From: a virus
Length of the DNA stretch: 37,968 bases
Reading direction: 5' to 3' (one strand)
IMG/VR virus record: IMGVR_UViG_3300045988_169084
The notes under the pieces: model-generated
Told to the model about the DNA's origin: nothing
Database searches by the model: none
The model's input: only the letters and a program-made list of their open reading frames with translations
Made by a program: the position numbers and the translations under genes
Shown: piece after piece, positions 3,165 through 36,441 of the stretch
Layout of the letters: each line of letters begins with the position of its first letter
How positions within the stretch are numbered: position 1 is the stretch's first letter

Positions 3165-3469
3165 TAGATAAGGATAAATTCTTCGTGATTTGCAGGCTCA
3201 TGGCAGACGGGAATACTGTTTACGTCTCTGCCTTAAGAGTTAAATCATCCAAAAAAGAATTTATAAGGTATGCGAAATCCTCGTACAAAAACTATCGAAT
3301 GTATTGCCGGGCAGTTTTCCTGATGAACAAGGCGAACCAGATAGAAGGGAAACCTAGGAGAATGTTTTTTTATAGCCACAGCTGGCTTAGTATTCGGGAG
3401 AAGAGGGCCACGGAAAGGTTTTTGAATCGACGAGGCGCCCCTTATCTAAGAAACGCGCACAGTCATTAA
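3161..3469 (+). CDS. hypothetical basic protein (102 aa), last gene of the rightward arm
   Basis: ATGA start/stop overlap with the RuvC-like gene. Its 3' end overlaps the convergent minus-strand ORF by 83 bp. Confidence 0.4.
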   Translation: MIDKDKFFVICRLMADGNTVYVSALRVKSSKKEFIRYAKSSYKNYRMYCRAVFLMNKANQIEGKPRRMFFYSHSWLSIREKRATERFLNRRGAPYLRNAHSH

Positions 3470-3974: not shown

Positions 3975-4555
3975 TCTTTGCAGTAATCTTCCACTCCTAG
4001 AGCGATAGAATTGGCGATGCTCTCAGGGTGGTGTTTCATTACGTCGGCATCTCCGGGATTAGTAATGAACCCGCACTCGCAAAGCACCCACACTGGTTTT
4101 GTCTTTTTCAGGATTGCAAGATTAGAGCGCTCCTGAATAGCATCAGCTCTCCCCGGTAAAATGCCAGTCAGATACTCCGCAATACATTGAGCGAGCTTGC
4201 GCCCCCGGGAAGAGCTTGGGAAAAAGCACACATGGGCACCGTGTGGGACTGGATTAGGAATAGTGATAATCTCGATCAGCTTGTTTTCATCTACTTCTCT
4301 CCTTTTCTTCTGCGCAGAATCGCAATGGATACTGATGCCGAAGTCATAGCCGCCAGAATTAGCCGCACGGATAGTAGCATTAAGGTCTCCCGTGTTGCTC
4401 ATGTCGGGGAAGTCAATAACATGGACGTCATGGCCTTTGTCCTTCAACTCAGTAAACAGGTGGTCCACGATTGAAGTGGCTATGGCATGCTCCTCAAATC
4501 CATTCCCACGCGCTCCAGTTCCGCGAGCGTGTCCAATATCAAGTGCTATTTTCAT
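3971..4555 (-). CDS. N-acetylmuramoyl-L-alanine amidase (Amidase_3-type endolysin)
   Basis: N-terminal 'IALDIGHARGTGARG...EE' and 'ISIHCDSA' resemble the Zn-ligand motifs of Amidase_3 (DxGHGG...E ... SxHxDA). The gene sits in a lysis cluster. Confidence 0.65.
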   Translation of the reverse strand: MKIALDIGHARGTGARGNGFEEHAIATSIVDHLFTELKDKGHDVHVIDFPDMSNTGDLNATIRAANSGGYDFGISIHCDSAQKKRREVDENKLIEIITIPNPVPHGAHVCFFPSSSRGRKLAQCIAEYLTGILPGRADAIQERSNLAILKKTKPVWVLCECGFITNPGDADVMKHHPESIANSIALGVEDYCKE

Positions 4556-21448: not shown

Positions 21449-21617
21449 GATTTTAATTCTTGATTAAACGTACCGCCTCGAAGAAGATTTGCGTCTTGCA
21501 TCAGGCAGGTATCCTAATCAGGGCTGTCTGTGTGAACGGCGGTGGTTCACGAAACTGTTTGAACAAGTGTCCGTCCGGGTTGTTCAAGCCCAAACAAGCA
21601 CACATCACATAACATTG

Positions 21618-21656
21618 CAATAAAAAACCCCGCACTAATAAAAATATTAGTGCGGG
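21618..21656 (-). terminator. rho-independent terminator (12-bp perfect stem cccgcactaata/tattagtgcggg, loop aaaa, U-run on the minus-strand transcript)
   Basis: Hairpin read directly; a T-run follows on the minus strand (plus-strand aataaaaaa precedes it). Confidence 0.55.
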
Positions 21657-21746
21657 TAAAACAAAGGAAAAATAACAATGAACTATAGAATGGCGCGTCC
21701 TTTCACAAGGAGACCCACATGTGTTACTACGTATTGCTTAATATTT

Positions 21747-21789
21747 CAATAAAAAACCTTCCTCCGCATCAATTAAAACACGGAGGAAG
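21747..21789 (-). terminator. rho-independent terminator (10-bp stem ccttcctccg/cggaggaagg, followed by a U-run on the minus-strand transcript)
   Basis: Hairpin read directly, followed by an A6 run on the plus strand. It is the first of two tandem terminators downstream of the scaffold gene. Confidence 0.5.
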
Positions 21790-21850
21790 GAGAACATACA
21801 CGTAGTTAAGCCACTAACTCATGTGGTAATGTAACGACGACTGAGAAACA

Positions 21851-22774
21851 TTACCATTGAACGTGCGTAGACGCAAGCCGATTATATTCCTCCCTCGCAT
21901 CTTTTGGCATCCGGTCCAAACTTCCGTATTTGGAAATCATGTCAATCATGCGTTGCTGGGCACTCGTCCCTGATTGGGACCTCATCACTCCCGGAGTAGG
22001 CATCGTCCCTTCCTGATACCTTGCCGCCTTTTCGTACAAGGCTTCCAAGATATATGGGTTATTGAGGGCCATCGCAAAAGAGCTATCATCAACGTCAATC
22101 CCCGCATCGATCAAGCTCTGCCGAAGGATTGTTGCGTTGCGTTCATACTGCGGCCCCCATTCCTTCCTGAAATGCTCCTGAGCCTGCTTGGAAGCTTCTT
22201 CCACTCTCCTTACAAACTCTTCATTGTTCTTGCGGTAAAGCGTATCTTGATAGCGCAGAAGCTCCTGTGCCGTCTCAGCCGGGATGTTGTGCTTATGGGC
22301 AAACGCCGCAAACTCTTTAAAGCTCGCCTCGTCATAGTCGTCCTTATACTCATCAGGAATCTGGTACCCATCAACATTGTCAGGAACGCCAATGTAGGAG
22401 CGCCATGCTTTAATCTCTTCCTCACTGGCTCCTTCTCCGGGTTTCTTCACGCCGTCAAACTTCTTCCCGATTAACTGGTTGGCATTCACAAAGCCTTTCA
22501 CCAGTTCATCAACATTCTTGTACTTCCCTAGAGAGTCGGCACCTTCAAACTTGGAAGTCCACCCTTCCTTGAAAGAGCCATCCTCGCCGATAATATCAGC
22601 CACCTTAAATGCCTGCTGTTGCGTATCCGTTGGAGCTGGATTTGCATCAAGCTTCATCGTCCCCGGCATCTGCATCTGCTGTGCAGGCTGGGTAGTTTGC
22701 GTGGAGGAGGCGGCGCTCCCTGTCGTGGTGGTAGGGGCCTGACCCCCTGCATTATTTGGATTGCTATCAATCAT
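21851..22774 (-). CDS. scaffolding protein (307 aa)
   Basis: Low-complexity Thr/Gln/Ala-rich N-terminus followed by a charged helical region, sitting between the portal and capsid genes. It is the same length as T7 gp9, which may be coincidental. Confidence 0.45.
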   Translation of the reverse strand: MIDSNPNNAGGQAPTTTTGSAASSTQTTQPAQQMQMPGTMKLDANPAPTDTQQQAFKVADIIGEDGSFKEGWTSKFEGADSLGKYKNVDELVKGFVNANQLIGKKFDGVKKPGEGASEEEIKAWRSYIGVPDNVDGYQIPDEYKDDYDEASFKEFAAFAHKHNIPAETAQELLRYQDTLYRKNNEEFVRRVEEASKQAQEHFRKEWGPQYERNATILRQSLIDAGIDVDDSSFAMALNNPYILEALYEKAARYQEGTMPTPGVMRSQSGTSAQQRMIDMISKYGSLDRMPKDAREEYNRLASTHVQW

Positions 22775-23070
22775 TTTCCTGCTAGGTATTTTATTAATTC
22801 AAGCACTTGGCGCGCTCCTGATATGAACATTGCTCTGTTCGCATCAAAGTCTGCAAGCAAGGGGGCTTCCTTCTTCACATGTTCTTTATCACACAAAGAA
22901 AGGTCAACCATTGTAGTAAGGTAAAAGAGCAAGCGATTGGTTAATTCGGACCCCTTAAATTCTTCCCGGAACCGGATAAAATCTTCCTCCGGCACTTTGC
23001 TTACATTTCCGAAGAAGTCATAAACCTTTAATGCCTTCTTCTTGTTTTTATCATCAGTAGTTATTTCCAT
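22771..23070 (-). CDS. hypothetical protein (99 aa) between portal and scaffold
   Basis: ORF with a 4-bp overlap to the scaffold gene. Confidence 0.45.
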   Translation of the reverse strand: MEITTDDKNKKKALKVYDFFGNVSKVPEEDFIRFREEFKGSELTNRLLFYLTTMVDLSLCDKEHVKKEAPLLADFDANRAMFISGARQVLELIKYLAGK

Positions 23071-23073
23071 AAA

Positions 23074-24693
23074 TCATCGCATGTTCCCTATAGCGCTCCC
23101 AATGTTCTTCTGGATTTCAGAAGCTTCAAGAGCATTAGCCATCTGATTGGCCCCCTGTTGCGCCGCTTCTCTTTCTTTAATAAGACGGTCAACCTTCGCT
23201 TTATCCTTGAGTATCTTGGTCGGCATCCCAATAGATTTAATCCCTGACCTCATGATAAAATCAGTATCAAAGCTAATCATCACATCAGGATCAATCTGAG
23301 CCAAAGGAATCGCAATCGTCTGCATGAACTCGGAGAATAGCGTCGGCTGGTGACGGTCCAAAAGCATTTGGAAAGGAGTCGTAAACTTGATGCTAAAATC
23401 ATCCAGCGCAGGAACAAGCTTCTCATCTCGAAGAAGCTCATAGCAACGCATCACTACAGGCTGTAGGAACTCTTCCGTCAACCTAGTGTAGGCAGGGGAA
23501 GCAATCCTCGCAGAATACGCTTCGATCATCTGCGCCACCGTCGCCTTCATGTATTGAGGGTCTTTGACCTGCAACAACGGCGCAAACAAATCCATGTCGC
23601 ATGTCTTCTGAATGTTGTTCTCAAGCCTCTGCACCTGCCATTGCATCTCATTAGCCTGCATCATGTTCTGGAACAAGGGCGTCGGCTTGGCCTGAACGTT
23701 CATCGGGTTGAAGGTTGTCACCCCGCCAAACCCCCAGTCAATGTTCCCATCAAATCCTTCCGGCACCAGCATCGGCGGGAATATCTTCTGCATGGCCGAT
23801 TCGCTCAACGCCTTAACGGAGTTGGTCAATTCGGTCTGGTCCCCTAATGCCCTCAAACCAGCACCAACTCCATAAGGAGAGTTGGCAATATCAAAATAGT
23901 TTGAGACGCTCACAGGGCTTGTCCAAAAATACTGCGTCGCCAGAACATCTCCTGACTGGTCAAACACGCTACGCATCACCCACGGCCTGCCATTAGCCTC
24001 TTTAATCAGCTTCTCGTCTCCCGTCCTCTCCACCTTCTCCAGCAAATGGAACACAAGATAGTTGTCAGGATTTACACTGCTCGCCTGATATTTCTCCTTC
24101 ACCATGTCAGGCAGTACATTCTCCGGGAACGTCGCGACAATGTCCTGTATCCTCAACCACTCATCCCAGCAAAACGTATGGACATTCCCAAACTTGTCCC
24201 TGTCCACCATGAAATCCCCTACAGGAATATGCGCAAATTTCAGCATCCCTCGCACCTTGTCCCATTCGGACCAGAAGGCCGCCTGACCGTAAGCCGCACG
24301 ATCAAAGTAAAAAAGCTCGGAAGCCGTGTGGAAGTTGCTGTTGCGCATAAACCACGCAACCTGCCTCCCTGTCTCATAATAAATGTTCTCAATCGTGCTA
24401 TCAATCTGGCTCTGATCGTCGATCTTGGCCAATGGCTCAAAGCTAAACCATCCCTGACTCTTGGGCGTTATAAGCTCATGCTGGCCAGCCGCATTTACCC
24501 TCAAAGCCCTTTCAAGCGTCTGGTCCAAATAGCCAAGGTCCGTCCCAGTAGATTGATAAACCGCACCGTTAATGTTGAACTTCTTCTCAGGATCAACGTA
24601 TTGCGCGATCCTCTGCCAGTTGCTCACGTACCGCTGGCGGAAAGCATACAAATCCGCATGCTTCTGCTTGGCATCTTGTTTGTTGGTAACCAT
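23074..24693 (-). CDS. portal protein (539 aa)
   Basis: Size and position (terminase, then portal, then scaffold, then capsid). Confidence 0.55.
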   Translation of the reverse strand: MVTNKQDAKQKHADLYAFRQRYVSNWQRIAQYVDPEKKFNINGAVYQSTGTDLGYLDQTLERALRVNAAGQHELITPKSQGWFSFEPLAKIDDQSQIDSTIENIYYETGRQVAWFMRNSNFHTASELFYFDRAAYGQAAFWSEWDKVRGMLKFAHIPVGDFMVDRDKFGNVHTFCWDEWLRIQDIVATFPENVLPDMVKEKYQASSVNPDNYLVFHLLEKVERTGDEKLIKEANGRPWVMRSVFDQSGDVLATQYFWTSPVSVSNYFDIANSPYGVGAGLRALGDQTELTNSVKALSESAMQKIFPPMLVPEGFDGNIDWGFGGVTTFNPMNVQAKPTPLFQNMMQANEMQWQVQRLENNIQKTCDMDLFAPLLQVKDPQYMKATVAQMIEAYSARIASPAYTRLTEEFLQPVVMRCYELLRDEKLVPALDDFSIKFTTPFQMLLDRHQPTLFSEFMQTIAIPLAQIDPDVMISFDTDFIMRSGIKSIGMPTKILKDKAKVDRLIKEREAAQQGANQMANALEASEIQKNIGSAIGNMR

Positions 24694-24694
24694 C

Positions 24695-24979
24695 TTATTG
24701 ACCTAATGCGCTTTTGCCACTTACCCCGCTACCTGCCCCCAAGGCGTTCTTGCTCGCAACAAAGGTTCCTCCAAAGGAACTACGGCGCCTGTTCTCACGT
24801 ATCTTGTTCTCCGTGCCAGACGTATCGACTGTTACCTCATTCACTGGCTTCTCAGGAGCAGGAGCATCCATCCCCTCCTTGTTCTGCTTCAAGCCTAATA
24901 CGCCTCCAACGATATTAGTAACACCTTTGAACACGCCGCTAATAGCGTTGCCTATCTCTTTAAACGGATTGCCGCCCAT
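24695..24979 (-). CDS. hypothetical Gly-rich small protein (94 aa)
   Basis: ORF between the terminase and portal genes. Contains 'GNAISGVFKGVTNIVGGVLGL'. Confidence 0.4.
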   Translation of the reverse strand: MGGNPFKEIGNAISGVFKGVTNIVGGVLGLKQNKEGMDAPAPEKPVNEVTVDTSGTENKIRENRRRSSFGGTFVASKNALGAGSGVSGKSALGQ

Positions 24980-25394
24980 GATTTTTTCCCTTTCCTAATA
25001 ATTTAATTAGCAATTCAACTTCTTTTCTCCCGTACAGATACACATTCCCCGCACGAAAGCCAATAAAATATTTCATCCTCTCCTCTTTTATCATCCATCT
25101 TAACAACACTCTAAAATCTCCAACCCCTAAATAAAAGAAGAACCCATTCGCATCATGACGGCTACATGATAACGAAGGAACGCACGCCTGCTTCACCCTA
25201 GACCAGCATTCCTCCACATCAGCCCACCCCTCTTCCATCCGAAAGAAATGCCCCATCACAAGGCATCTATCATCCCATCGCCGATATAAATAACGATGCT
25301 CCTCCCAAGACGCATCAAAATCCGCGCCTAAAGCTTTCAGGACCGCGCGCCCCTCCTCTCCTAGACATGATGCCTTCATAGTTGTTCCTATCAA
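24960..25394 (-). CDS. hypothetical Trp/Arg/Gly-rich protein (144 aa), encoded by a C-depleted sense strand
   Basis: The annotated start overlaps the terminase 3' end by 80 bp, so the true start is probably an internal Met. Composition is biased. Confidence 0.35.
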   Translation of the reverse strand: MIGTTMKASCLGEEGRAVLKALGADFDASWEEHRYLYRRWDDRCLVMGHFFRMEEGWADVEECWSRVKQACVPSLSCSRHDANGFFFYLGVGDFRVLLRWMIKEERMKYFIGFRAGNVYLYGRKEVELLIKLLGKGKNHGRQSV

Positions 25395-26934
25395 TATTTA
25401 AATTGCTAAAGTTCCGGCCAAAGCTCTTCTTTACATGCGTCTCTCCTCCTCCACTTACGTTCCCAAGCAAACCAGCCATCCGAGCCTCAGCTATGTATCT
25501 CAACGAATCACTCCAATGCGACGAACTATCATGCACGATCTCGTTCTTATAGGCCCCATTCTCTCCAAGCGCGGGCTTCATCCTGTAGCTTAACCAGTAC
25601 GGATAAGCCTTCTCCGTCCCACCTATATCAAATCTCAATAAAGGGAACATCCCTAGCAAGTAATTGATACTTATCCATTTATCTCTTATTCTAGGCAAGC
25701 ATACTATCCCCGGCAACCCAGCCTGTTGCCACATGTACGCCTGACTTAAACCCGTGTCTGTCGTGTACCCAGCATCATGCGGAAATATATTCCTCATCAA
25801 GGTGGGAAATCTACTCAACAACCGAGCCGTCCTCTGCGCCGGACCCTCACTGCTATATTGGCCGCAATCACTATCTACTATCCAGATCAACCCCTCCTTC
25901 AACTGGAACACCGTCGAAACCGTATTCAACGGATTCCCCAAATCCCACGTCGCATAACACGGCAATGTCGGATCATATGGCGCATGCAAAAAATGACCAT
26001 CCCTCATCGATGCCTCAAGCACCTCCTCCAATATCGCACCCTCCATCGGCACCTCAAACGCCTCATCCAGCGTCGAAGGGTATTCCTCGTTCATCGATAA
26101 GCCATGTTGCCTCTTCGCCTTCTGCCACCAAACCTTCTGCCTGTCTTCCAAGTCGATCCCATATTTCGCCTTCAACGTCGTAAAGTAACTCTTCGTACTC
26201 TCCGTCAACGGCTCATCATCATCACTAACATTGCTCTCATCTTCCCACCACGGCAAAAATACAACGTTAAAGTCCTTCTCCCCCCTATGCCCCTCTTCTA
26301 TCGATAACGCATTCATCACGTTCTCATAGAATATCCCCTTCTTCCCCCCTCTTACTGTCGTCTCAACAAAAATAAATCCATCCTTCGCCGCAGGAAACGT
26401 CGCATTCACTATCTCCGCCGCCCTCTTCGGCTCCGTCGCACTTATCGTTCCCAACTCCGATATGTGCGCAAACCCCAAACCACTGCCCCTAAAGTATTTA
26501 CCACCAACTATACGGCTCGACTTCCTACCAACCATCTCCACCGTAATCATCTTGTTGTTAAATTCCATCTTAAACAACCAAGGCAATTTCCTCCTCAAAC
26601 TCTCCAACGCAACCCTCACTATCTCCCTCAACTTCTCCTCAGCATCAGGTTGCGTCCTGTCAACCAACGCCAATAACCACCCCTCATTAAACGCCGCCAT
26701 GTCCGCCATCATCACACCAATGCACGTACTGCACCCCTGACGACGCGACTTCGGCACCAAAAATCTCTTCTTCCCCCTCAAATAACACTCCTCATGCAAC
26801 CTACGCTGGAATTCCCTAGGCTCATATCTAATCACTCGACCATCCGTCAACTTGATCTCATACAAGTTGCTCAGCCTCCACATAGGGTCTTTCAACCTCT
26901 CCAATAACAATCTCTTCTCTTCCGAACTTAACAT
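25315..26934 (-). CDS. terL: terminase large subunit (539 aa)
   Basis: N-terminal P-loop-like 'LVPKSRRQGCST', acidic nuclease-domain motifs, and position directly upstream of the portal gene. Confidence 0.7.
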   Translation of the reverse strand: MLSSEEKRLLLERLKDPMWRLSNLYEIKLTDGRVIRYEPREFQRRLHEECYLRGKKRFLVPKSRRQGCSTCIGVMMADMAAFNEGWLLALVDRTQPDAEEKLREIVRVALESLRRKLPWLFKMEFNNKMITVEMVGRKSSRIVGGKYFRGSGLGFAHISELGTISATEPKRAAEIVNATFPAAKDGFIFVETTVRGGKKGIFYENVMNALSIEEGHRGEKDFNVVFLPWWEDESNVSDDDEPLTESTKSYFTTLKAKYGIDLEDRQKVWWQKAKRQHGLSMNEEYPSTLDEAFEVPMEGAILEEVLEASMRDGHFLHAPYDPTLPCYATWDLGNPLNTVSTVFQLKEGLIWIVDSDCGQYSSEGPAQRTARLLSRFPTLMRNIFPHDAGYTTDTGLSQAYMWQQAGLPGIVCLPRIRDKWISINYLLGMFPLLRFDIGGTEKAYPYWLSYRMKPALGENGAYKNEIVHDSSSHWSDSLRYIAEARMAGLLGNVSGGGETHVKKSFGRNFSNLNIDRNNYEGIMSRRGGARGPESFRRGF

Positions 26935-26953
26935 CTCAACCCCTAATCCTTTA

Positions 26954-27451
26954 CTATCTAACTATCTCTCTCATCTCAAACTCAACCGCCTGCCAGTCAA
27001 CATTAACGTGCGGACCAATCGCCTCTTTGCTCATAAATTTCCACGCAAACAACACCAAATCTGTACTATCCCTACCTCCATACTTCTTATACAACCACCT
27101 AGCCTTCCCCTTAATCCGGTACTTCGTCCTGCTCCGCAATACATAAAACTTACACGTCTCCACTCCATCAACCACATCATCCCCAGCAGAAACCCCAGCA
27201 GGCCTAATCCCATTCAGGTTCTCAACTCCCCTCAGCTTAGAACCCTCATAAACCAATTTATATTTCTTACTCAAATACCTCTTCTTCTCTTCCAATTTCC
27301 CGTCCCTCTCGTATATGTCATACGCCCTCCTAACATTCAAACTACATCTCCCGTACTTCTTCCACCCCATCAGCAAGTAATACAACTCCTGCTCAAATTT
27401 CCTAACTCCCTTCCCCTCTACCTCCAACCGCGCCTCATTACTTATCCCCAT
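26954..27451 (-). CDS. hypothetical Lys/Gly-rich protein (165 aa); terminase small subunit candidate by position only
   Basis: A stop-free 165-codon frame in a cytosine-depleted (A/G/T-rich) strand, where stops should be frequent. Confidence 0.4.
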   Translation of the reverse strand: MGISNEARLEVEGKGVRKFEQELYYLLMGWKKYGRCSLNVRRAYDIYERDGKLEEKKRYLSKKYKLVYEGSKLRGVENLNGIRPAGVSAGDDVVDGVETCKFYVLRSRTKYRIKGKARWLYKKYGGRDSTDLVLFAWKFMSKEAIGPHVNVDWQAVEFEMREIVR

Positions 27452-27950
27452 AATTCCCCCCTTTCAACAATTCACTAAGCTCACTCCCCATCTCCTCTTC
27501 ACTACCCCCTCCATTCCCAAGCCACCCCTTCATCCTTATAAACATGCTCAACGCCTGCAACTGGTCCTTACCACTCACTCCTTCCCCCCTTCCCATCTTA
27601 CTCAACAACCGCTCCACCTCTCCCCTACTCAACACCCCAACTTCTCCATCATCCCCTAAATCCATATTCAGCCCATCCTTCAACTCCCTCTTCAACATCT
27701 CTAACAACTTCTCCTCATTCCTCCTCATTTCATCCTCAAAATATTCATCCCTCTCCCCTAACAAATCACGACTAATCTCTCCATAGCTCTTCCTTCCCAA
27801 CAACACCAACAACATCCCTCTCAACTCCACCATCCCTACCTTCAACCCATAACCAAGCCTCTCTAACTCCTTCTCCCTCTCTTCACTCTCTTCACTCTCC
27901 AACAACCAGACAATATGCCTCTCAAGCTCTTCCGATAATTCTTCTCTCAT
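27438..27950 (-). CDS. hypothetical highly acidic protein (170 aa) encoded by an essentially cytosine-free sense strand
   Basis: 170 stop-free codons where chance predicts about 9% stops per codon. The protein has 0 Pro, 0 Thr, 1 Ala, 1 His and 2 Gln. First gene of the leftward operon. Confidence 0.4.
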   Translation of the reverse strand: MREELSEELERHIVWLLESEESEEREKELERLGYGLKVGMVELRGMLLVLLGRKSYGEISRDLLGERDEYFEDEMRRNEEKLLEMLKRELKDGLNMDLGDDGEVGVLSRGEVERLLSKMGRGEGVSGKDQLQALSMFIRMKGWLGNGGGSEEEMGSELSELLKGGNYGDK

Positions 27951-28086
27951 CTCAAAAACATATATAAATCATCCTCTCATCATTGTCTATGCTTTTTTCC
28001 CATAAAGCCCCAACACAACAAAACTACAAATCCTCTCATATTCTCTACATATACTATACTCCTTCTCTTTTCTCAGATTTTTCTTA

Positions 28087-28428
28087 CTCGAGGGACCCTT
28101 CTTCGTGCGCTTGACGCCGCCGCCGCTTTTCTCCCGCCGGCCCCCTCGAGACCCCCTCCAGTGGTCCCCCTAGGGGTGGGGTTATCGTCTCGGCTACGCT
28201 AAGAGGGGTGAGCTGGAGAGGTCGAGCGTCAGGCGTTGCGGTGCGTGGTGCGTGGTGTTGCGTGGTCTATCATGTTGTTGGCGTCACCAAGATGATGATG
28301 ATGATTTGAAAAAAATGTGACGAGTTGACAAAAAAAGCTTGCAATGGTGAGAGAAAATTGACACAAAGAGTGCATCAAGTGAGGGGCACGACGCCTCGAA
28401 CGACGACAACCGACAACCAAAAACAAAC
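28087..28428. promoter_or_regulatory. GC-rich divergent control region (candidate early/late promoters, origin and/or pac site)
   Basis: Lies between the first leftward gene and the first rightward gene. Contains an inverted repeat with ctcgag ends (28087-28092 / 28145-28150), the perfect palindrome cccctagggg (28167-28176), a GGTGCGT tandem (28242-28257), (GAT)5 (28293-28307), and two TTGACA hexamers (28327-28332 and 28360-28365). Confidence 0.5.
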
Positions 28429-28755
28429 ATGAAAGTGACCATTAACAAACTAGCATCAAAGCGCCTCTTAGAGGCATTTGCCAAAGTCGGAGCTTGCAGG
28501 ACCGAGGAGCAAGCCGAGGCTCGCATGTCAAAGCTCTTAGGCGTGCCAGTGCATGTGATCTACTACCGCTCGGAAGAGATCACGGAGATAGACATGAGGG
28601 CGGCGACTGGAGAAGGGAGCCTGTTCCCGGCTCGCGTGAGCGTCGAGGGAAGCGTGCCGTTGTACAAACTGGCGGCGCTTGTGAAGGATGCCTTGCCTAC
28701 CTTAGCCGTTGGAGTGGTGACCTACAACAACCACATGCAACCCTCTATCAACTAA
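28429..28755 (+). CDS. hypothetical early protein (108 aa)
   Basis: First ORF of the rightward arm, with a CA-rich leader. Confidence 0.5.
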   Translation: MKVTINKLASKRLLEAFAKVGACRTEEQAEARMSKLLGVPVHVIYYRSEEITEIDMRAATGEGSLFPARVSVEGSVPLYKLAALVKDALPTLAVGVVTYNNHMQPSIN

Positions 28756-28791
28756 TTATTAACAATCAACGAAACAAGGAGAAAAACGAAA

Positions 28792-29058
28792 ATGAACAAG
28801 AAATATATCTATCGCTGGACGGCCAAAGCGGCCGACTGGTCAACGTACAAAATGTGCTACGAACTGGCAAAGACGGAACGAGGCGCTTTGGTTGCGGCTC
28901 ATCGTTGGTGCGACGACAACCTGTTGCACGGCATGGGAGCGGATCACATTGCTATAGTTGAGTGCAAGATTGACGACGGCGACATATCTGGTCCGTGGCA
29001 AGAGGTGAGGGCGCAAAGGCGTCGTCCTTACGGTGGACGGTGGATTGAAATCCTCTAA
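28792..29058 (+). CDS. hypothetical early protein (88 aa)
   Basis: AGGAG SD. ORF with normal composition. Confidence 0.5.
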   Translation: MNKKYIYRWTAKAADWSTYKMCYELAKTERGALVAAHRWCDDNLLHGMGADHIAIVECKIDDGDISGPWQEVRAQRRRPYGGRWIEIL

Positions 29059-29072
29059 CTTACGAAGGAGCT

Positions 29073-29264
29073 ATGAAAACCGCCGCTATCATCGCGCTTG
29101 GAGTTGTAAGCCTAGTAGGCTTTGCCGCTATCATCCGTAGCGTGTGGCTAGACTACACGTACAGACACGCACCGCTGGGCAGTGTGATAGTCATTGCCGT
29201 GTCATTGACAGTCATGATCTGCATCACGCTGATGACACTAATCACGCTGGTTATCAACAATTAA
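29073..29264 (+). CDS. small two-TM membrane protein (63 aa)
   Basis: Two hydrophobic helices. The stop codon lies inside the TTAACAATCA motif. Confidence 0.5.
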   Translation: MKTAAIIALGVVSLVGFAAIIRSVWLDYTYRHAPLGSVIVIAVSLTVMICITLMTLITLVINN

Positions 29265-29302
29265 CAATCAAAAACATTAAACATTTAAAGGAGAAAAGAG
29301 AA

Positions 29303-29644
29303 ATGATGATAAAACTCGTTAACCCCGATTGCGATGCCGCGACGACATGCGGCATCTATGAGTTGCAAGACGGGGAAATAATATTGTACATTGAGTATGA
29401 GACAATTTATAGTATCTCGTTTGTAGGCCTATCTGAGCCTATGAGCGTTGAGGCCGCCATAACCGCGATTAAAAACAACGCACTTGCCGAAATAAAAACA
29501 AGCGGAGAAGAGGGCGAAATCCACAACCTCCCGATGAAACGCTCTTGTGGGGCGCACCGAAATCGAAGAAGACGGCCTGCAAATCTGCTTGTATTTTCCG
29601 AATATGAGCGAGAAGACCCGCGAGAAGTTCGTGGAAGCATTTAA
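29303..29644 (+). CDS. hypothetical early protein (113 aa; start at 29303 MMIKLVNPD..., preceded by AAGGAG)
   Basis: The ORF track lists 29144..29644, but that start overlaps the upstream membrane gene. The SD-associated ATG is at 29303. Confidence 0.45.
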   Translation: MMIKLVNPDCDAATTCGIYELQDGEIILYIEYETIYSISFVGLSEPMSVEAAITAIKNNALAEIKTSGEEGEIHNLPMKRSCGAHRNRRRRPANLLVFSEYEREDPREVRGSI

Positions 29645-29663
29645 CGATTAACAATATACGTAG

Positions 29664-30044
29664 ATGAATTTGGAAATAGATAGATGCGACTTTGAGCGAA
29701 TCGTCAACGCCTTTCACTTGATAGACGCCAAAATCAGTGACCGTGAATTCGTCCTAGACACGATATGGAGCATGGTCGAAGGTTCAGACCTAACATTTAA
29801 CAATTTGGAAGCATGTGTCACCTTGTTAGACGTTTACGATGACGTAGAGGAGTTTGCCTATGACAGACTAAGCGACGAAGAAACTAACGAATTGTTAGAA
29901 GACGTCGGGTCTAATACGCTCCTTAAGATAGCACTGGATAGACTCGTCGATAGGGGAACTATCATGTCTTACAATCTACGAAACGGTGACGCAACTATTA
30001 TATGTGACCTAAACGGTGACGCAACTATTATATGTGACCTCTAA
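29664..30044 (+). CDS. hypothetical acidic protein (126 aa) ending in a duplicated decapeptide NGDATIICDL
   Basis: ORF. The 3' end carries a perfect 30-bp tandem duplication. Confidence 0.5.
   Translation: MNLEIDRCDFERIVNAFHLIDAKISDREFVLDTIWSMVEGSDLTFNNLEACVTLLDVYDDVEEFAYDRLSDEETNELLEDVGSNTLLKIALDRLVDRGTIMSYNLRNGDATIICDLNGDATIICDL
29981..30040 (+). repeat. perfect 2 x 30-bp in-frame tandem duplication (aaacggtgacgcaactattatatgtgacct)
   Basis: Read directly; both copies are identical. Confidence 0.9.
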
Positions 30045-30083
30045 CCTCTAACAATCAACAACAAACAACTATAACAAAACGTT

Positions 30084-30728
30084 ATGAATCAATCAACCAA
30101 ATCAAAAGGAGAAAAAACCTACGACTACAAGGCAGTCATCATCAGGTCATACAACCCACTACAAACCGAAATCATCGAAGGAGAATCGAAGTCAAAAAAC
30201 ATTAAGTGGGCCGCAATCGTCGCCGCTAGAGCAATCGCCACGCATAACGACGTGGACGCCTTAATCCTCCTCTACGACGCGAAAACCGGAAAGCACGTAC
30301 ACTCATCACGCCTCAGAAAGGCATCATGCGCCTCATATCGTGAGCGGATCACTAACCAAGCAAAGTATGCCCGCAAATCGAGAACGCGCGAAATAGAGCG
30401 GCTTTATTGCTATCTCCCTCGCCCCAAAATCATCACCAAAGCAAGCGGCCACAGAAGGCAAACATACTACAAGATTATCATCAGAGAAATCTACATTGCC
30501 AAGTCCGGGAGACTGGCAACTAGGAGTATCCCACGCGAGAACCTACCGGAAGCACTAAGAACCGAAGGCAGGCTCGTCCGAGAATCAAATCTCCAGTCAG
30601 AACTCGACAGGATCATGGCAAACCTCTATTCCCGTAGCTCACTGCCTGACCTCGAACAAGCACAAAAGATTGCAAGCGAATGGCCAAATTTTGAACATAT
30701 CATCAACTTCATCAAAAGATACTGTTAG
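30084..30728 (+). CDS. hypothetical basic protein (214 aa), possibly nucleic-acid binding
   Basis: Arg/Lys-rich ORF. No specific motif recognised. Confidence 0.5.
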   Translation: MNQSTKSKGEKTYDYKAVIIRSYNPLQTEIIEGESKSKNIKWAAIVAARAIATHNDVDALILLYDAKTGKHVHSSRLRKASCASYRERITNQAKYARKSRTREIERLYCYLPRPKIITKASGHRRQTYYKIIIREIYIAKSGRLATRSIPRENLPEALRTEGRLVRESNLQSELDRIMANLYSRSSLPDLEQAQKIASEWPNFEHIINFIKRYC

Positions 30729-30767
30729 AACAAAATCGTAACTACCTAACAACAAGCATAATACGAA

Positions 30768-30810
30768 AGAGGGCCGCCCGTTCATAACTGGTGGCCCTCT
30801 CCTCTTTTCC
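30768..30810 (+). terminator. rho-independent terminator candidate (stem agagggcc/ggccctct, T-rich tail)
   Basis: Hairpin 30768-30800 followed by cctcttttcc, immediately downstream of the 214-aa gene. Confidence 0.45.
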
Positions 30811-31457
30811 ACGTCATAATAAATTTTCTGCTTGCAATGCCACCGATTTTGCTTGACACTGATTGGCGTTCGGATGAACACGCAGTCTTACTTGAGGTGG
30901 GAGGGGTCTGGAGTCCCCCGAACTGGTTCCGGTCGAGGCTTGAGAGCTAATGAGAGGCAGTCTAGGGGAAATGAGAAGAAGAGTAAAGAAGAAAAAAAAT
31001 CAGTATTATCTTTCCGGAGTTTGGATTTGCTAGAAGAGGTTGGCGAAATTAAATGGGAATAGGGAATAGCGAGAGGAATTAGGAATAATACCGATTTTTG
31101 GTGGAGGGTGTAGAGAGTAAGAGAGGCGTGGAAGTAGAGGAGAGGGAGAGGACGAAGAATTGGAGGAGAGTAGTGGTAAGAGAGGTTGTGAGAGGGCAGA
31201 AAAGGGAGGAGTATGGTTTGGAGAGGAATCTTGGGAATGACCTGCATGCCAGTAGGTTATTTTGGGATTTTGGAGTGTGAAAGATGAGGGCTGTTGATTG
31301 GATTTGATGAATTGTTAGTTGGCTTGGAGGAGTTGAGGCGGCGCCCTTAGTTAAGGGTTTGATAAATGGGATGTTTGGTTGGTTTGATGAGGGGAAATTG
31401 GATGAAACGGCGCCATGTTTGATTTTGGAGTTGACGGCTTAGGGAAAAACGTTATAG
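30811..31457 (+). other. ~650-bp non-coding, cytosine-depleted, purine-rich block with short repeats (GGAATA x3; GTTTGAT x4-5; GA-rich tract 31090-31240)
   Basis: No ORF above 76 codons on the plus strand despite the position between plus-strand genes. Composition is near C-free, and repeats are visible by eye. Confidence 0.5.
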
Positions 31458-31949
31458 TTGAAAGAAAACAAAGGAGAACTAGAAATGAAGAAATATGAAC
31501 TGAGCGCATTTGTAAACTTTGATAACTGTTTTGAATCCCAATTCCCGGTTGGGGGGGAAGTTGGGGCGTTAAATAGGGTTTATGGTCATTTAAAGGGGAT
31601 GTGCGCTAGTGGGGATGATGTTCTTTTGGGTGTTAGCTTGGTTGAGGGAGGGCATAGGAGGAGTATGGGTGCGATATGTTTCAAATGGGGGTGTGGGGAT
31701 TGTTTTGATTTGTCGAGGGGTATTAGTCGGTGTGGTGTTTTGGTGGAAGATATGAGCTACTGCTTTTTAACGTATGTTGCTAATGGGACTAACCCGTTGA
31801 TTTATGGGATGCAGTATGTATGGGTTTTTTATAGTGACCGGATTGAGAAGGTGAATAGGATTGTAGCGGATTATTCATTTTCTGATTACCGCTTGCAAGG
31901 CTTATGGTTTTTTGATGAAGAGCATTGTTTTAAAGATGCTTGTAATTAG
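31458..31949 (+). CDS. hypothetical Cys/Gly-rich protein (163 aa) encoded by a C-depleted sense strand
   Basis: AAGGAG SD. The ORF is stop-free in an A/G/T-rich context. Confidence 0.45.
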   Translation: MKENKGELEMKKYELSAFVNFDNCFESQFPVGGEVGALNRVYGHLKGMCASGDDVLLGVSLVEGGHRRSMGAICFKWGCGDCFDLSRGISRCGVLVEDMSYCFLTYVANGTNPLIYGMQYVWVFYSDRIEKVNRIVADYSFSDYRLQGLWFFDEEHCFKDACN

Positions 31950-31981
31950 AAAAAAGAAAAGAAAGAAAGGAAACAATAACA

Positions 31982-32944
31982 ATGGATAAAAAAAGAACGA
32001 TGCAAAGAAGAAATAATAATAATAAAGTAACTTATAGGGTTTTTGTCCTTATAAAATATGAAGATAAGTTGGAAGACTTTTATAAAGAAGAGGCGCTTGC
32101 TAGTTATCCTGATGTTCGTGCATTAGAGGATATGATTAACCGGGTAAAAGAACATGCTATCGATGCTAAGAAAAGAGGTCTTGGCCTAGAGTTCCACATT
32201 AGCGAGGAATATGGTCAGGCGTTTAGAGATATTAAGTTTTCTAAGAACTATTCTGCTGATGAATTGTCGTTGTTGGACCTTGAAAAAGAGTTTGATATTG
32301 ATTCGTATGTTTTTATGCATGATATTATTCAAGCTAGTGGCCGGAGTCGTGGGATTTTTTATCCTGCATATTCAGATTCGCTTAAGGCCGCTGAGGAATA
32401 TATTGAGACATCAGGAATGGACAGCAAGCTTTTCATCACCATATCCTATAATTGCGACGCCCTAAAAAGAATGGAGTTTATCGTTGGTTCTTTTAAATAC
32501 ACTTTCAAAGATAGTAATGTAGTTGATTTGAGCAAGTCCGAAGAAAGCCGTGAGAAGGCTCCAGAAGGCCCTAGCGACGCTTTGGAGGACTTTGGTACCA
32601 AGGAAGACTTGGAAACGCTTCTGGAGGTGATGAGAGGCCTTCGAGACGATGTTAACGGAGAGCTGAATGATTCTTGCGTAGCTGGGGTCCGTTTGGTGAG
32701 TGTGAGAGCAGTGGATGCTCCGGGAGCGGCCAACTATTTTCGGCGGGCTAGGAAGGACATTGATGAGAGGACAGGATTGGTGAGATTGTCGGAGATAGAG
32801 ACTAATGAGCTTTTCGATAAGGAAATAGGAGTTGTTGTTCCCTATCTGTCTTTGAGGGCTTATCTAAAGACCGGAGAAAAGGGGCTGTTCGCGCGTCAAA
32901 TGGAAAAGGCCCAGCGCGAAGTGATGAAGGACTTCGAGAAATAA
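31982..32944 (+). CDS. hypothetical protein (320 aa); replication-associated by position only
   Basis: Large ORF upstream of the recombinase, within the replication-like module. Confidence 0.45.
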   Translation: MDKKRTMQRRNNNNKVTYRVFVLIKYEDKLEDFYKEEALASYPDVRALEDMINRVKEHAIDAKKRGLGLEFHISEEYGQAFRDIKFSKNYSADELSLLDLEKEFDIDSYVFMHDIIQASGRSRGIFYPAYSDSLKAAEEYIETSGMDSKLFITISYNCDALKRMEFIVGSFKYTFKDSNVVDLSKSEESREKAPEGPSDALEDFGTKEDLETLLEVMRGLRDDVNGELNDSCVAGVRLVSVRAVDAPGAANYFRRARKDIDERTGLVRLSEIETNELFDKEIGVVVPYLSLRAYLKTGEKGLFARQMEKAQREVMKDFEK

Positions 32945-33089: not shown

Positions 33090-33707
33090 ATGATTTACGG
33101 GTACATTAGGGTAAGTAGTGACAAGCAAACAGTGGAGAACCAACGCTTTGAAATAAATAATTTCTGCGAGCGAGAGAAAATTAAAATTGATGGTTGGATT
33201 GAGGAAACCATCAGTGGTACTAAGGCATACAATAAACGCCAGTTGGGAAAACTGCTCAGACAAGTACAGAAAGATGACCTTATCATTTGTGCCGAGCTTT
33301 CACGTCTTGGGCGAAATCTCTTTATGATTATGGAGATACTGAATATATGCATGACCAGAGAGTGCCGTGTGTGGACAATCAAAGATAATTATCGTCTTGG
33401 TGATGATATTCAAAGCAAAGTGTTGGCTTTTGCCTTTGGCCTATCTGCGGAGATAGAACGCAATCTTATTAGCCAGCGAACTAAAGAAGCCTTGGCAAGA
33501 AAGAAAGCCGAGGGTGTTGTTCTTGGCCGACCGAAAGGGAAAAAGAATGCTCCTAATAAATATAAGCTTTCTGGCAAAGAAACACTAATAAAGGAGTTGA
33601 TAGCAATTGGTGTATCAAAGCGCAAAATTGCGAAAACATGTAAGGTCGACCGCAATACGCTTGCACGCTTTATCAAAGAAAATTTGGAGCGCTTAATTAC
33701 CGCATAA
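33090..33707 (+). CDS. small serine recombinase (resolvase/invertase family, 205 aa)
   Basis: N-terminal 'MIYGYIRVSSDKQ' with the catalytic Ser in the canonical context, 'LSRLGR', and a C-terminal HTH-like region. Too short for a large serine integrase. Confidence 0.8.
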   Translation: MIYGYIRVSSDKQTVENQRFEINNFCEREKIKIDGWIEETISGTKAYNKRQLGKLLRQVQKDDLIICAELSRLGRNLFMIMEILNICMTRECRVWTIKDNYRLGDDIQSKVLAFAFGLSAEIERNLISQRTKEALARKKAEGVVLGRPKGKKNAPNKYKLSGKETLIKELIAIGVSKRKIAKTCKVDRNTLARFIKENLERLITA

Positions 33708-33770
33708 TAAATCCCCCCCGGCAGTTTGTGGTTTTTCTGCCGGGGGGATTTATTATGCGGTAATTAAGCG
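33690..33770. terminator. bidirectional terminator: ~34-bp near-perfect inverted repeat around a 13-nt loop (inner GC stem ccccccggcag/ctgccgggggg), shared by two convergent genes
   Basis: Read directly. The arms extend into both coding regions, so both proteins end in ...RLITA. Confidence 0.6.
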
Positions 33771-34388
33771 GTCCATTGATTCTGCAATGGATTTTATTAG
33801 GAGTGATGTTTCGGGGAATGTGGTTGAAATTGCTATGGTTCTTTGCCCGTTGTCATTTCTTTCTGATAATAGATGTGAAAGATTTGAAATGTTGATATCG
33901 TGCAAATTAACGTTTTGTAGGTTATCAATTACAAGGGCTTTTGCTTTGAATGCTCTTCTCAGAATTGGTGATTTATTCCGGCTGTGAAAGTCAGTTGCTT
34001 CTTTCAACAGGTCAAAGGCTTTAATATAGAAAATGGAATCCCCTTTCTTGTATCTTTGTGCAAGCCATGCGCATGCTGATAGAGTCTTGGGCTTGTTAGG
34101 CCCGCAAATGAGAATGGACTCTTCTTTCATCTCTTTCCTAATGCGTGAATAGAGATCGGGCATGGTTTTGACGGTCATTTCTTTGAGCAGGTTAAAATGC
34201 TTGAGAGGAATCTTGGCAAGCTGGAGATCAGCTAAAAAGATTTCTCGTTCCTTCTCCTGCTGGAATTTCCTTTCTTGCTCGATGTATTCCGGGCTAAGGT
34301 GATCTACAACGGGAATTCCTAGGGGTATGTTATTAAAATCAAACCCTAGTTCTTCGAGGATGTCGGAAGCTTTCTTTGGTTCGGACAT
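33753..34388 (-). CDS. DnaC/IstB-like AAA+ helicase-loader homologue with a degenerate Walker A (GPNKPKT)
   Basis: 'ILICGPNKPKTLSACAWLAQ' (P-loop position), 'ALVIDNL' (Walker B-like), 'IAISTTF' (sensor-like), and C-terminal 'DRLI' as in DnaC 'DRLxH'. Confidence 0.45.
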   Translation of the reverse strand: MSEPKKASDILEELGFDFNNIPLGIPVVDHLSPEYIEQERKFQQEKEREIFLADLQLAKIPLKHFNLLKEMTVKTMPDLYSRIRKEMKEESILICGPNKPKTLSACAWLAQRYKKGDSIFYIKAFDLLKEATDFHSRNKSPILRRAFKAKALVIDNLQNVNLHDINISNLSHLLSERNDNGQRTIAISTTFPETSLLIKSIAESMDRLITA

Positions 34389-36012: not shown

Positions 36013-36441
36013 ATGAAATACGACCCTGACAGAAGATATAAAAGAGGAGACCTAGTTAGAATCACAGGATACCGAGGGCGACTATTCGGTTGTGGAAATA
36101 AGCGGGAAATAAATGATAAGTATAAATTAGGAGTAGAAGTAGTTCTCGAAGAAGGTGAAGATTACAGTGGAGATGTTGTTATTCCTGAAGGTATTCTCAA
36201 AGGAAATAAAATTTTGTTGTCTTGTGCTTGTATAGAACTTGTCGAACCAGTTGAAGAAATAAGAAAAAAATATACTTATAATGTCTTTGATGAAGGAATA
36301 TGTTTTCAAATACGGGAAAATAAGTCCGTTGTTTATGAAATATATTGGAAAACAGGTGTTTATCCAGGATCGCCTTACAGTAAGGAAGAAGCACTAAATA
36401 AGGCGAATGAGATTTGCGATGAACTAAACAATAAGAGATAA
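36013..36441 (+). CDS. hypothetical protein (142 aa)
   Basis: ORF with normal composition in an AT-rich accessory region. Confidence 0.5.
   Translation: MKYDPDRRYKRGDLVRITGYRGRLFGCGNKREINDKYKLGVEVVLEEGEDYSGDVVIPEGILKGNKILLSCACIELVEPVEEIRKKYTYNVFDEGICFQIRENKSVVYEIYWKTGVYPGSPYSKEEALNKANEICDELNNKR

Follow-up and report, generated by a model that had tools for sequence, protein, structure and literature searches.

Why should one strand of a phage genome lose most of its cytosines over a kilobase or two, and the opposite strand lose them, more severely and over a longer zone, a short distance away? The question is raised by IMG/VR virus record IMGVR_UViG_3300045988_169084, a stretch of 37,968 nucleotides that was analysed whole and is called the window below; its 119-bp terminal overlap makes it a circular assembly of 37,849 bp. 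An earlier note on this DNA had described a C-depleted block on the plus strand at 30,830-31,950, mirrored on the minus strand beyond an interval at 28.1-30.8 kb, and had proposed a bidirectional replication origin in that interval, or transcription-coupled damage, as the cause. We argue for another answer, to which we would give a probability of roughly 0.4: that selection maintains, at the starts of transcription units, a position-dependent loading of G over C on the sense strand, with an anti-termination function. On this view two divergent transcription units would have as their 5' ends the block at 30.9-32 kb and the larger one that runs from 28.09 down to 21.6 kb.

GC skew was measured in windows of 200 nt, with a mononucleotide shuffle of the genome as the null. 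The shuffled genome ranges from -0.40 to +0.31, with a standard deviation of 0.10; in the real one, the standard deviation over the unskewed region at 3.5-23 kb is 0.094. Against these values the C-depleted block of the plus strand is real: the skew is +0.74 to +0.80 at 31.0-31.3 kb and stays at or above +0.46 until 32.1 kb, and the region 31.15-31.41 kb contains C-free runs of 43, 40 and 61 nt, the last one at 31.35 kb. The mirror depletion on the minus strand is also there, at 24.9-28.09 kb: the plus-strand skew is -0.83 to -0.93 at 27.4-28.0 kb, and the plus strand has G-free runs of 98, 77, 70 and 68 nt between 25.0 and 28.1 kb, the longest at 27.7 kb. Between the blocks, from 28,086 to 30,899, the skew is near 0. 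It is only the border of the first block that has to be moved: depletion starts at about 30,940, after a GC-rich motif, and the first 520 nt or so are non-coding. The open reading frame (ORF) at 31982-32944 carries the tail of the plus-strand gradient, whose profile falls to a plateau near +0.16.

The cumulative skew had been predicted to reach its extrema at about 28.1-28.4 kb and about 3.4 kb. On the circularised genome, cumulative G-C attains its minimum at 28,170 and its maximum at 3,435, detrended or not, exactly as predicted. These are, however, the points at which gene orientation diverges and converges, the leftward block of genes running from 27,950 to 3,387 and the rightward block from 28,429 through the circular junction to 3,469; consequently, the test is unable to tell replication from transcription. 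The curve is moreover shaped by a small part of the genome: the zone 21.6-28.09 kb, 17% of the total, accounts for 1,122 of the 1,689 units of the leftward fall, or 66%, and elsewhere in the leftward block, over 18 kb, the skew of the sense strand is only 0.06.

The bias itself is not a simple loss of cytosine. Throughout the skewed zones the G+C content stays at 0.42-0.52 while the skew goes as far as -0.93: the loss of C is balanced by a gain of G. In the most extreme gene, 27438-27950, C has a frequency of 0.01-0.06 at each of the three codon positions. The five amino acids that have a C in every codon, namely Pro, Thr, Ala, His and Gln, account for 2% of the residues of its product versus about 25% elsewhere. 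The 163-aa product on the plus strand had been said to be poor in Pro, Thr and Gln; it is, the same five amino acids forming 10% of its residues, with 9% C on the sense strand. Codon preference, which had been doubted as a cause, is indeed no explanation: untranslated leaders are biased as strongly as genes, all three codon positions are hit, and so is amino-acid content. At four-fold degenerate sites, the first three leftward genes have G 0.50-0.57, C 0.00-0.06, T 0.21-0.37 and A 0.11-0.19, compared with a baseline in the window of about G 0.20, C 0.24, T 0.35 and A 0.20. Two-fold codons ending in G go from about 55% to 77-83% in skewed genes, and purines at four-fold sites from about 0.40 to 0.63-0.76, or 0.63-0.96 when L011, a relative introduced below, is counted. 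In the skewed zone G is thus preferred for its own sake. Since T is not enriched and purines go up at four-fold sites, C-to-T deamination on an exposed strand is unable to give the pattern.

The bias is also graded. Within the terminase gene alone, C at four-fold sites climbs from 0.00 to 0.02, 0.08 and 0.12 from 5' to 3', and the grading extends to other phages. Nineteen IMG/VR contigs have terminases 64-100% identical to that of the window, and in all of them the sense skew starts abruptly, at 0.7-0.87, upstream of the terminase gene, and then decays to zero. Linear slopes over the first 6.5 kb are -0.116 per kb in the window, -0.113 in contig L005, -0.110 in L008 and -0.116 in L011: in these four lineages the sense-strand skew goes from about 0.85 to 0 across some 6.5 kb. 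The genes found along this slope are not at the same place in each lineage, the terminase gene being 1.2 kb from the onset in the lineages of the window and L005, and 2.8 kb in those of L008 and L011. When the third-position skew of orthologues is plotted against distance from the onset (values for the window and L011 are given in Table 1), a single curve is obtained.

The amidase gene, which was relocated within the clade, offers a direct comparison. In L011 it occupies 8948-9577, about 2 kb from the onset, with the first genes on one side and the terminase on the other; in the window it is found at 3971-4555, at the far end of the late block and 23.5 kb from the onset. The two orthologues are 54% identical (E 2e-78), and their skews are +0.38 in L011 and +0.05 in the window; at four-fold sites, the L011 copy has T 0.08 and C 0.10. 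The same gene differs in skew with its location, and composition thus follows position, not gene. In the first two genes of L011 both pyrimidines are excluded from four-fold sites (A 0.32-0.42, G 0.54-0.60, T 0.02-0.05, C 0.02-0.03).

We now turn to two contigs, L020 and L022, whose terminases are about 50% identical to that of the window and whose genes are all on one strand. Their late operon, longer than 11 kb, has a skew of 0.45-0.55 and a third-position skew of 0.7-0.9, with four-fold sites at about G 0.70, T 0.20, A 0.04 and C 0.05, and an amino-acid content near normal. The DnaB gene, directly upstream and on the same strand, has a third-position skew of 0.12 in L022 and 0.51 in L020. 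No sign flip occurs in either contig, and L020 has two step-ups and one step-down of the skew between co-oriented genes. Four-fold sites of the two contigs are identical at 0.36-0.49, which means that they are essentially saturated. Such equilibrium differences between co-oriented genes cannot be kept by a strand-wide replication bias, and can be kept by a property specific to the unit. L020 corresponds to positions 111,664-133,193 of the 244-kb contig CAYVAI010000001.1 of NCBI assembly GCA_964448375.1; it may be a prophage, and could then point to a host for the clade.

The clade is common in public metagenomes, with clusters of 320 and 1,128 terminase sequences. A second scan of viral contigs yielded nothing beyond those already recovered, and a scan of genome contigs for a prophage relative or a host found none. 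At about 30% terminase identity, neither the cultured phages (Ralstonia phage Cimandef and Moraxella phage Mcat5) nor contig L023, which is uncultured, show comparable skew.

Both onsets lie next to conserved elements. The leftward one, at 28,087, comes right past a GC-rich non-coding element at 28090-28230 whose core, CCCCTAGG and CGGGAGAAAAGC, aligns in the clade of the window, in L008, L010 and L011, and in L020 and L022, despite terminases that are only about 50% identical; its counterparts are at 7180-7300 in L011, 9180-9300 in L020 and 2250-2400 in L022. Its possible roles are those of a pac or cos site, of a late promoter and of a regulator site. The plus-strand block begins after the motif GAGGTGGGAGGGGTCTGGAGTCCCCCGAACTGGTTCCGGTCGAGGC, which recurs with its placement and orientation unchanged in L005 (6457-6483), L011 (6447-6485, both on the reverse complement) and L008, with the pattern GTCCCCC..GGTTCC..GGCGAGG across these three. 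In strain L006 this motif is almost unchanged, and the adjoining upstream sequence varies. The stretch that includes both onsets varies more between strains. Identity between the window and L006 is 86-94% over 28068-31779, compared with about 98% elsewhere; the module of five small genes at 28.43-30.73 kb is 86-89% identical, versus about 98% in its flanks. This module is missing from the 65% clade, which includes L011, where the centre is reduced to about 0.7 kb, so that the interval proposed as an origin is not a conserved feature. In L005, L008 and L011 the mirror block is a leader of only about 0.4 kb, almost pure purine, and the two onsets are about 0.7 kb apart.

Several details of these regions deserve mention. 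Three independent contigs, L001, L003 and L004, end at 28.09-28.25 kb, and L003 and L004 have an insertion of about 60 nt that duplicates the CCCTCGAG boundary. The central non-coding region contains three tandem copies of GTTGCGTGGT at 28233-28266. In L005, the terminase-sense strand carries an extra purine-rich block of about 270 nt (6540-6810). It is flanked by the central motif and by the terminator hairpin of a converging gene module, has no gene downstream of it, and may represent either a non-coding transcript or an element acting at the DNA level. The plus-strand leader of the window is purine-rich until about 31,250, then G+T-rich. It diverges from that of L006 by 14-18%, with no codon-phase bias, whereas the ORF 31458-31949 that follows diverges by only 5.7%. 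The purine-rich part has two islands containing C and T, AATCAGTATTAT (30999-31010) and ATAATACCGATT (31083-31094), unchanged in L006 and complementary at 11 of 12 positions; long-range pairing between the two may give the leader RNA a stem. On the complementary strand, a 119-aa ORF rich in Pro, Leu and Ser, at 30888-31247, is probably an artefact of a stop-poor strand. As for ORF 31458-31949, the ATG at 31484 is its more likely start, its homologue in L006 has a 174-nt deletion that keeps the frame, and its product matches no family in PHROGs or Pfam, with which 29 predicted proteins of the window were compared.

What, then, could anchor composition to these points? From the conserved elements directly upstream, we infer that the two onsets are transcription starts. 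Under the explanation that we favour, the sense (non-template) strand, hence the transcript, would be loaded with G and stripped of C from just past the conserved GC-rich element, to an extent set by the distance from the unit start and not by the resident gene; the loading would be gone by about 6.5 kb in the leftward unit and by about 1-2 kb in the rightward one. Selection, rather than biased mutation, probably upholds the pattern, and it would act on the nascent RNA or on the non-template strand, not through replication or cytosine deamination. The outcome would be a transcript whose 5' region has no C-rich stretch and is hardly able to fold. Hairpin terminators need G-C pairs; a transcript offering neither these hairpins nor rut-like (Rho utilization) RNA would have a built-in resistance to premature termination. 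The early loss of a transcript would cost all downstream genes, which would give selection its weight towards the 5' end. Evasion of Rho-type termination would be the function that best suits this picture: Rho is reported to engage unstructured RNA biased to C over G and to silence prophage genes (PMC13650167; PMC12360218). In the window, C never outnumbers G in a 78-nt stretch along the initial 3.5 kb of the leftward unit or the initial 1 kb of the rightward one, compared with 20-64% of such stretches further on, and the first 500 nt have a predicted folding energy of -0.10 kcal/mol/nt versus about -0.3 elsewhere. The transcript starts, including the untranslated leaders that would otherwise be exposed (about 135 nt in the leftward unit and 520 nt in the rightward one), are thus free of any stretch of about 80 nt with low structure and C in excess of G.

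A bolder form of the proposal, which we hold to be rather unlikely, is that the phage anti-terminates, or evades a cytosine-directed host factor, purely by the base composition of the first kilobases of key operons, kept rich in G and nearly without C. Nothing that binds, pairs with or incorporates at a C of the nascent RNA could then abort the operon, the candidates being Rho loading, GC hairpins, ddhCTP (3'-deoxy-3',4'-didehydro-CTP) chain terminators and RNase sites containing C. Selection would have the strength to strip Pro, Thr, Ala, His and Gln from the proteins, and would be graded along the transcript.

A number of observations speak against selection for transcript integrity, and against Rho evasion in particular. 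To evade Rho it is enough that C be less frequent than G: near-zero C is more than is needed, the excess of G at four-fold sites exceeds a mere replacement of C, and Rho evasion leaves unexplained a fixed reach of about 6.5 kb while 18 kb of the same block are unskewed. The minus-strand gene 33753-34388, inside the rightward block, has a C-rich sense strand: it tracks the DNA strand and not its own transcript. Scans for promoters of the sigma-70 type found no convincing site at either onset; a match to TGGACA-17-TGTAAT/CATAAT, spotted by eye at the onset of L011 and L008, is not conserved in the window. The A/T bias is opposed in two of the three lineage groups, A going up in L011, T going up in L020 and L022, and little change being seen in the window, so that a single simple rule does not fit all. 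In L020 and L022, moreover, the bias is mostly synonymous and G+T-rich, mutational in look. Polymorphism in ten genomes of the 65% clade gives no sign of an active mutator and does not tell selection from biased mutation: synonymous diversity in the zone is not raised (0.04-0.08 versus 0.05-0.17), C-creating changes occur per site about 5 times less often than they do in the unskewed region, G-to-A changes are in balance with A-to-G changes, and a test of derived-allele frequencies, with ten genomes and few sites, is not significant (p = 0.28).

Before weighing the broader alternatives, some specific candidates can be discarded. Selection for G-quadruplexes or G clusters is contradicted by runs of at least three G, of which there are 55 versus 75+/-6 in shuffles (74 versus 101+/-7 in L011), and neither block of the window has a canonical quadruplex motif. 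Polar oligomers of the type of Chi or KOPS (FtsK-orienting polar sequences) fail, no 5-mer or 6-mer being consistently enriched or depleted across six skewed regions. The depletion of TC dinucleotides among the remaining C, to 0.50-0.55 of expectation, is not diagnostic of a deaminase context, since codon choice accounts for it (Ser AGY used for TCN; Ala and Pro codons retained). The asymmetry expected of deamination, namely a rise in T, a fall in G+C and a mainly synonymous effect, is absent from the window and L011 and is seen only in L020 and L022. A diversity-generating or hypermutation cassette is rejected, the 29 proteins including no reverse transcriptase or deaminase family and no long repeat pair being present. 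An invertible segment for the serine recombinase at 33090-33707 fails as well: the inverted repeats that flank the interval are only weak and driven by composition. Finally, the region 27.8-32.1 kb has no match to Rfam RNA families, and the window has no long terminal or internal repeats that could mark genome ends.

The earlier note put forward an origin or transcription-coupled damage; the simple origin model fails, and so does damage in the simple form of deamination. With a bidirectional origin at 28.1-30.8 kb, the strand of leading polarity, single-stranded as template of the lagging strand, would gain G over C, most of all near the origin. The extrema of the cumulative skew at 28,170 and 3,435, a sign on each side as leading strands predict, the plus-strand G excess kept by the minus-strand gene 33753-34388 and the threefold repeat at 28233-28266 all agree with it. 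However, that 10-nt repeat is the only candidate for origin hardware that turned up in the interval, which is itself unskewed, is not AT-rich (G+C 0.37-0.64 in 200-nt windows) and has no cluster of DnaA boxes: 13 DnaA-box-like sites were counted versus 8.7 expected, neither enriched nor clustered, although the interval may contain a phage-specific initiator site. A skew due to replication should hold along the replichore, independently of transcription units; here it is lost at 0.116 per kb and reaches zero by about 6.5 kb, is 5-10 times as large as usual replication skews, and comes with neither enrichment of T nor loss of G+C. Nor is the switch conserved: its module is absent from the 65% clade, L011 included, outside the clade of the window the mirror block shrinks to its leader of about 0.4 kb, and in L020 and L022 the skew rises between co-oriented genes without a change of sign, sparing DnaB. 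The region of the DnaC/IstB-like helicase loader, at 33.7-34.8 kb, is also away from the interval. We thus regard an origin in the interval as highly improbable. Of transcription-coupled damage, the anchoring to transcription stands, and the damage, understood as C-to-T deamination, does not, since G+C is unchanged and T is not enriched. A purely mutational asymmetry can be stated more generally: the non-template strand, exposed near the promoter by open complexes and R-loops, would be damaged there, and less so with distance. This accounts for the anchoring at unit starts, for the decay and for the irrelevance of gene identity, and L020 and L022, mainly synonymous and G+T-rich, with A and C at 0.04-0.05 of four-fold sites, carry the signature of C-to-T plus A-to-G changes; in human genes, promoter-proximal strand asymmetries decay over 1-2 kb. 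Yet T at four-fold sites lies at 0.21-0.37 in the window, whose baseline is 0.35, and at 0.02-0.08 in L011, and the rise of purines from about 0.40 to 0.63-0.96 needs transversions from pyrimidine to purine, which deamination does not supply. With G+C steady, and neither synonymous diversity nor per-base C-to-T and A-to-G changes elevated in the zone, this process seems to us improbable, if less so than the other rivals.

Ranked just below it is a functional R-loop zone, in which unfolded transcripts, rich in G and poor in C, from two divergent promoters form lasting RNA:DNA hybrids that prime replication or promote recombination, as in the precedents of ColE1, T4, mitochondrial origins and immunoglobulin switch regions. 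A G-rich non-template strand from the unit start, a divergent mirror-image layout, a decay over kilobases and the near-pure-purine leaders of L005, L008 and L011 are what it predicts, and a helicase loader is encoded by the phage along with a nuclease and a RuvC-like resolvase, yet no polymerase or primase was recognised among the proteins of the window in the PHROGs and Pfam scans. C-poor RNA would also escape Rho in its capacity as a remover of R-loops (PMC12360218). Against this stand the under-representation of runs of at least three G and the lack of quadruplexes in the two blocks; U, which should suit hybrids least, is tolerated as T in the window and favoured in L020, and a 6-kb hybrid over translated essential genes, or one over the late operon of more than 11 kb in L020, is hard to justify. 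At slightly longer odds, the phage could be evading another cytosine-acting host factor, such as ddhCTP from prokaryotic viperins, mRNA interferases of the MazF type or restriction enzymes. An exclusion of C near-absolute enough to remove five amino acids fits such a factor; a polar hazard, chain termination for example, would weigh heaviest on 5' positions; and palindromic sites with G or C are impossible in C-free runs, which extend to 98 nt. But no candidate predicts an excess of G beyond the replacement of C, avoidance of restriction needs neither strand specificity nor anchoring at unit starts, no oligomer is consistently avoided or enriched beyond composition, and the first module past the centre (28.43-30.73 kb) is left unprotected, as are the capsid and tail genes. 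The poorest odds of all go to an effect of packaging ends: the element at 28.09-28.23 kb would be a pac site, from which headful cuts spread ends over the next 6 kb or so with falling frequency, and strands without G-C self-complementarity would be favoured as these ends get resected and annealed at each infection. A deeply conserved cis element does lie directly upstream of a gene in the position of the small terminase, the gradient covers about 17% of the genome in the direction from terminase to portal, the phage encodes an exonuclease and a resolvase, and the nearest cultured terminases are those of Ralstonia, Bcep22-like and Stx2 phages, which we take to be headful packagers. This account leaves unexplained the skew of early genes and the step-down and step-up at DnaB in L020, as well as the separate rightward block and a sign that always follows the sense strand, and the contig breaks at 28.09-28.25 kb can be explained by strain variation.

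Set beside known systems, G-over-C loading of transcript starts resembles each of them in part. Replication GC skew, in bacterial chromosomes and some phages, shares the central sign flip, a G-rich strand running 5' to 3' outward and a V-shaped cumulative curve; here, in contrast, the magnitude goes to 0.9, only 6.5 kb and about 2 kb are skewed, the skew decays, there is no excess of T, and relatives show steps between co-oriented genes. The promoter-proximal GC skew and R-loops of human CpG-island promoters and of immunoglobulin switch regions share a G-rich non-template strand from the (presumed) start, a divergent mirror symmetry and a decay over kilobases; here we have a phage, in which the zone is protein-coding, the proteins are distorted and G clusters are not enriched. 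Vertebrate mitochondrial DNA has a comparably extreme synonymous skew, with a positional gradient that disregards genes and reflects time spent single-stranded, but its signature is C-to-T plus A-to-G with enrichment in G+T, whereas here T is not enriched and L011 loses both pyrimidines. Szybalski's rule, purine loading and the coding-strand G excess of T7 also have a sense strand richer in G (and in A, in leaders) and a sign that follows transcription; ordinary sense skew in this genome is about 0.06, compared with 0.6-0.9 here, local, graded and unit-specific. With rut sites and the anti-termination of phages (lambda N and Q, P4 Psu) the likeness is functional: a zone free of unstructured RNA with C in excess of G would act as an anti-terminator does; known phage anti-termination relies on proteins or RNA elements that modify polymerase or Rho, and here it would rely on base composition over kilobases. 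In the literature searched, which is incomplete, no description was found of cytosine-free, graded operon starts or of compositional anti-termination at the scale of kilobases in phages; a paper on gene transfer agents has skews of only about 0.03.

Strand asymmetry is normally a weak, genome-wide by-product, used for calling origins; here it is near its theoretical maximum. It is local, graded with distance, costly to proteins and conserved across lineages saturated at synonymous sites, and a relocated gene adopts the local value. If the pattern is selected, phage operons are under a strong constraint in their 5' kilobases that has no name as yet, and the pattern would provide a signature, readable from sequence, for the starts of transcription units in uncultured phages. 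If it is mutational, it requires a strand-specific process from pyrimidine to purine that lies outside deamination models. Either way, a few kilobases can dominate the extrema of the cumulative skew in small phage genomes, and origin calls need other evidence.

Table 1. Features of the window, with their coordinates, and third-position skew of genes in the window and in L011, with the distance of gene midpoints from the leftward onset.
Feature	Position	Strand	Detail
Whole leftward gradient zone	21601..28087	-	G-C = -1,122 over 6,485 bp; slope -0.116 per kb
C-free untranslated leader of leftward unit, skew onset	27951..28087	-	Plus-strand G-free run 28008-28075
First gene of leftward unit, 170 aa, small-terminase position, most extreme gene	27438..27950	-	Sense A 28%, C 3%, G 44%, T 24%; third-position skew 0.92
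Second gene of leftward unit, 165 aa, function unassigned	26954..27451	-	C 7%, G 38%; four-fold sites C 0.00, G 0.50
Large terminase gene with internal gradient	25315..26934	-	phrog_2 match; third-position skew 0.62
Portal gene (T7-type head-tail connector), gradient tail	23074..24693	-	PF12236, E 2.5e-57; third-position skew 0.33
Conserved GC-rich non-coding element directly upstream of leftward (packaging/late) unit	28090..28230	-	Blocks CCCCTAGG and CGGGAGAAAAGC align across lineages
Unskewed module of five small genes with terminal hairpin 30768-30800, separating the two blocks	28429..30800	+	Skew -0.007 over 2,372 bp
Conserved GC-rich motif GAGGTGGGAGGGGTCTGGAGTCCCCCGAACTGGTTCCGGTCGAGGC directly before plus-strand C-poor block	30894..30939	+	Counterparts in L005, L011, L008
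Non-coding C-poor leader of rightward unit	30940..31457	+	Skew +0.47 to +0.80; C-free runs 31154-31196, 31251-31290, 31347-31407
163-aa ORF with C-depleted sense strand	31458..31949	+	C 9%, G 32%, T 34%; four-fold sites C 0.06, G 0.42
320-aa ORF with tail of plus-strand gradient	31982..32944	+	Sense skew about +0.29 (C 15%, G 27%)
Convergence point of gene blocks and cumulative-skew maximum	3387..3469		ORFs 3161-3469 (+) and 3387-3974 (-) overlap tail to tail; maximum 3,435
First gene (window / L011)	0.4 kb from onset		Third-position skew 0.92 / 0.91
Terminase (window)	2.0 kb from onset		Third-position skew 0.62
Amidase (L011)	2.0 kb from onset		Third-position skew 0.54
Terminase (L011)	3.5 kb from onset		Third-position skew 0.37
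Portal (window)	4.2 kb from onset		Third-position skew 0.33
Portal (L011)	5.8 kb from onset		Third-position skew 0.17
Capsid (window)	7.1 kb from onset		Third-position skew -0.02
Capsid (L011)	8.7 kb from onset		Third-position skew -0.07

The gene content is that of a podovirus-like phage. The leftward block encodes the 170-aa and 165-aa proteins, the large terminase, a T7-type portal, a capsid protein, a protein of 2,029 aa, tail proteins and the amidase. The 170-aa product has a weak homologue at the same position in L011, its other homologues being restricted to the clade of the window, and a comparison of the terminase with solved structures gave no near match. The rightward block encodes small unassigned genes, a serine recombinase, an adenine methylase of the D12 class, a PD-(D/E)XK nuclease and a RuvC-like resolvase; within it, two genes at 33.7-34.8 kb are on the minus strand, one of them for the DnaC/IstB-like protein. 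Most genes of the window have no Shine-Dalgarno sequence ahead of them, which is typical of Bacteroidota phages.

Three minor observations concern the rightward block. An inverted repeat of 34 nt (33685-33718 and 33742-33775), 97% complementary and with arms 23 nt apart, spans the converging 3' ends of the serine recombinase and DnaC/IstB-like genes, whose proteins both end in RLITA; the repeat may act as a terminator in both directions or as a site of recombination. The ORF at 29664-30044 contains an exact tandem duplication of 30 bp, at 29981-30040, that doubles the C-terminal peptide NGDATIICDL. Finally, a third C-poor gene, 2285-2647, is found far from both onsets, with C 6%, A 43% and C-free runs of 44 and 69 nt, and gene 36013-36441 has 11% C; these two genes may mark further unit starts.

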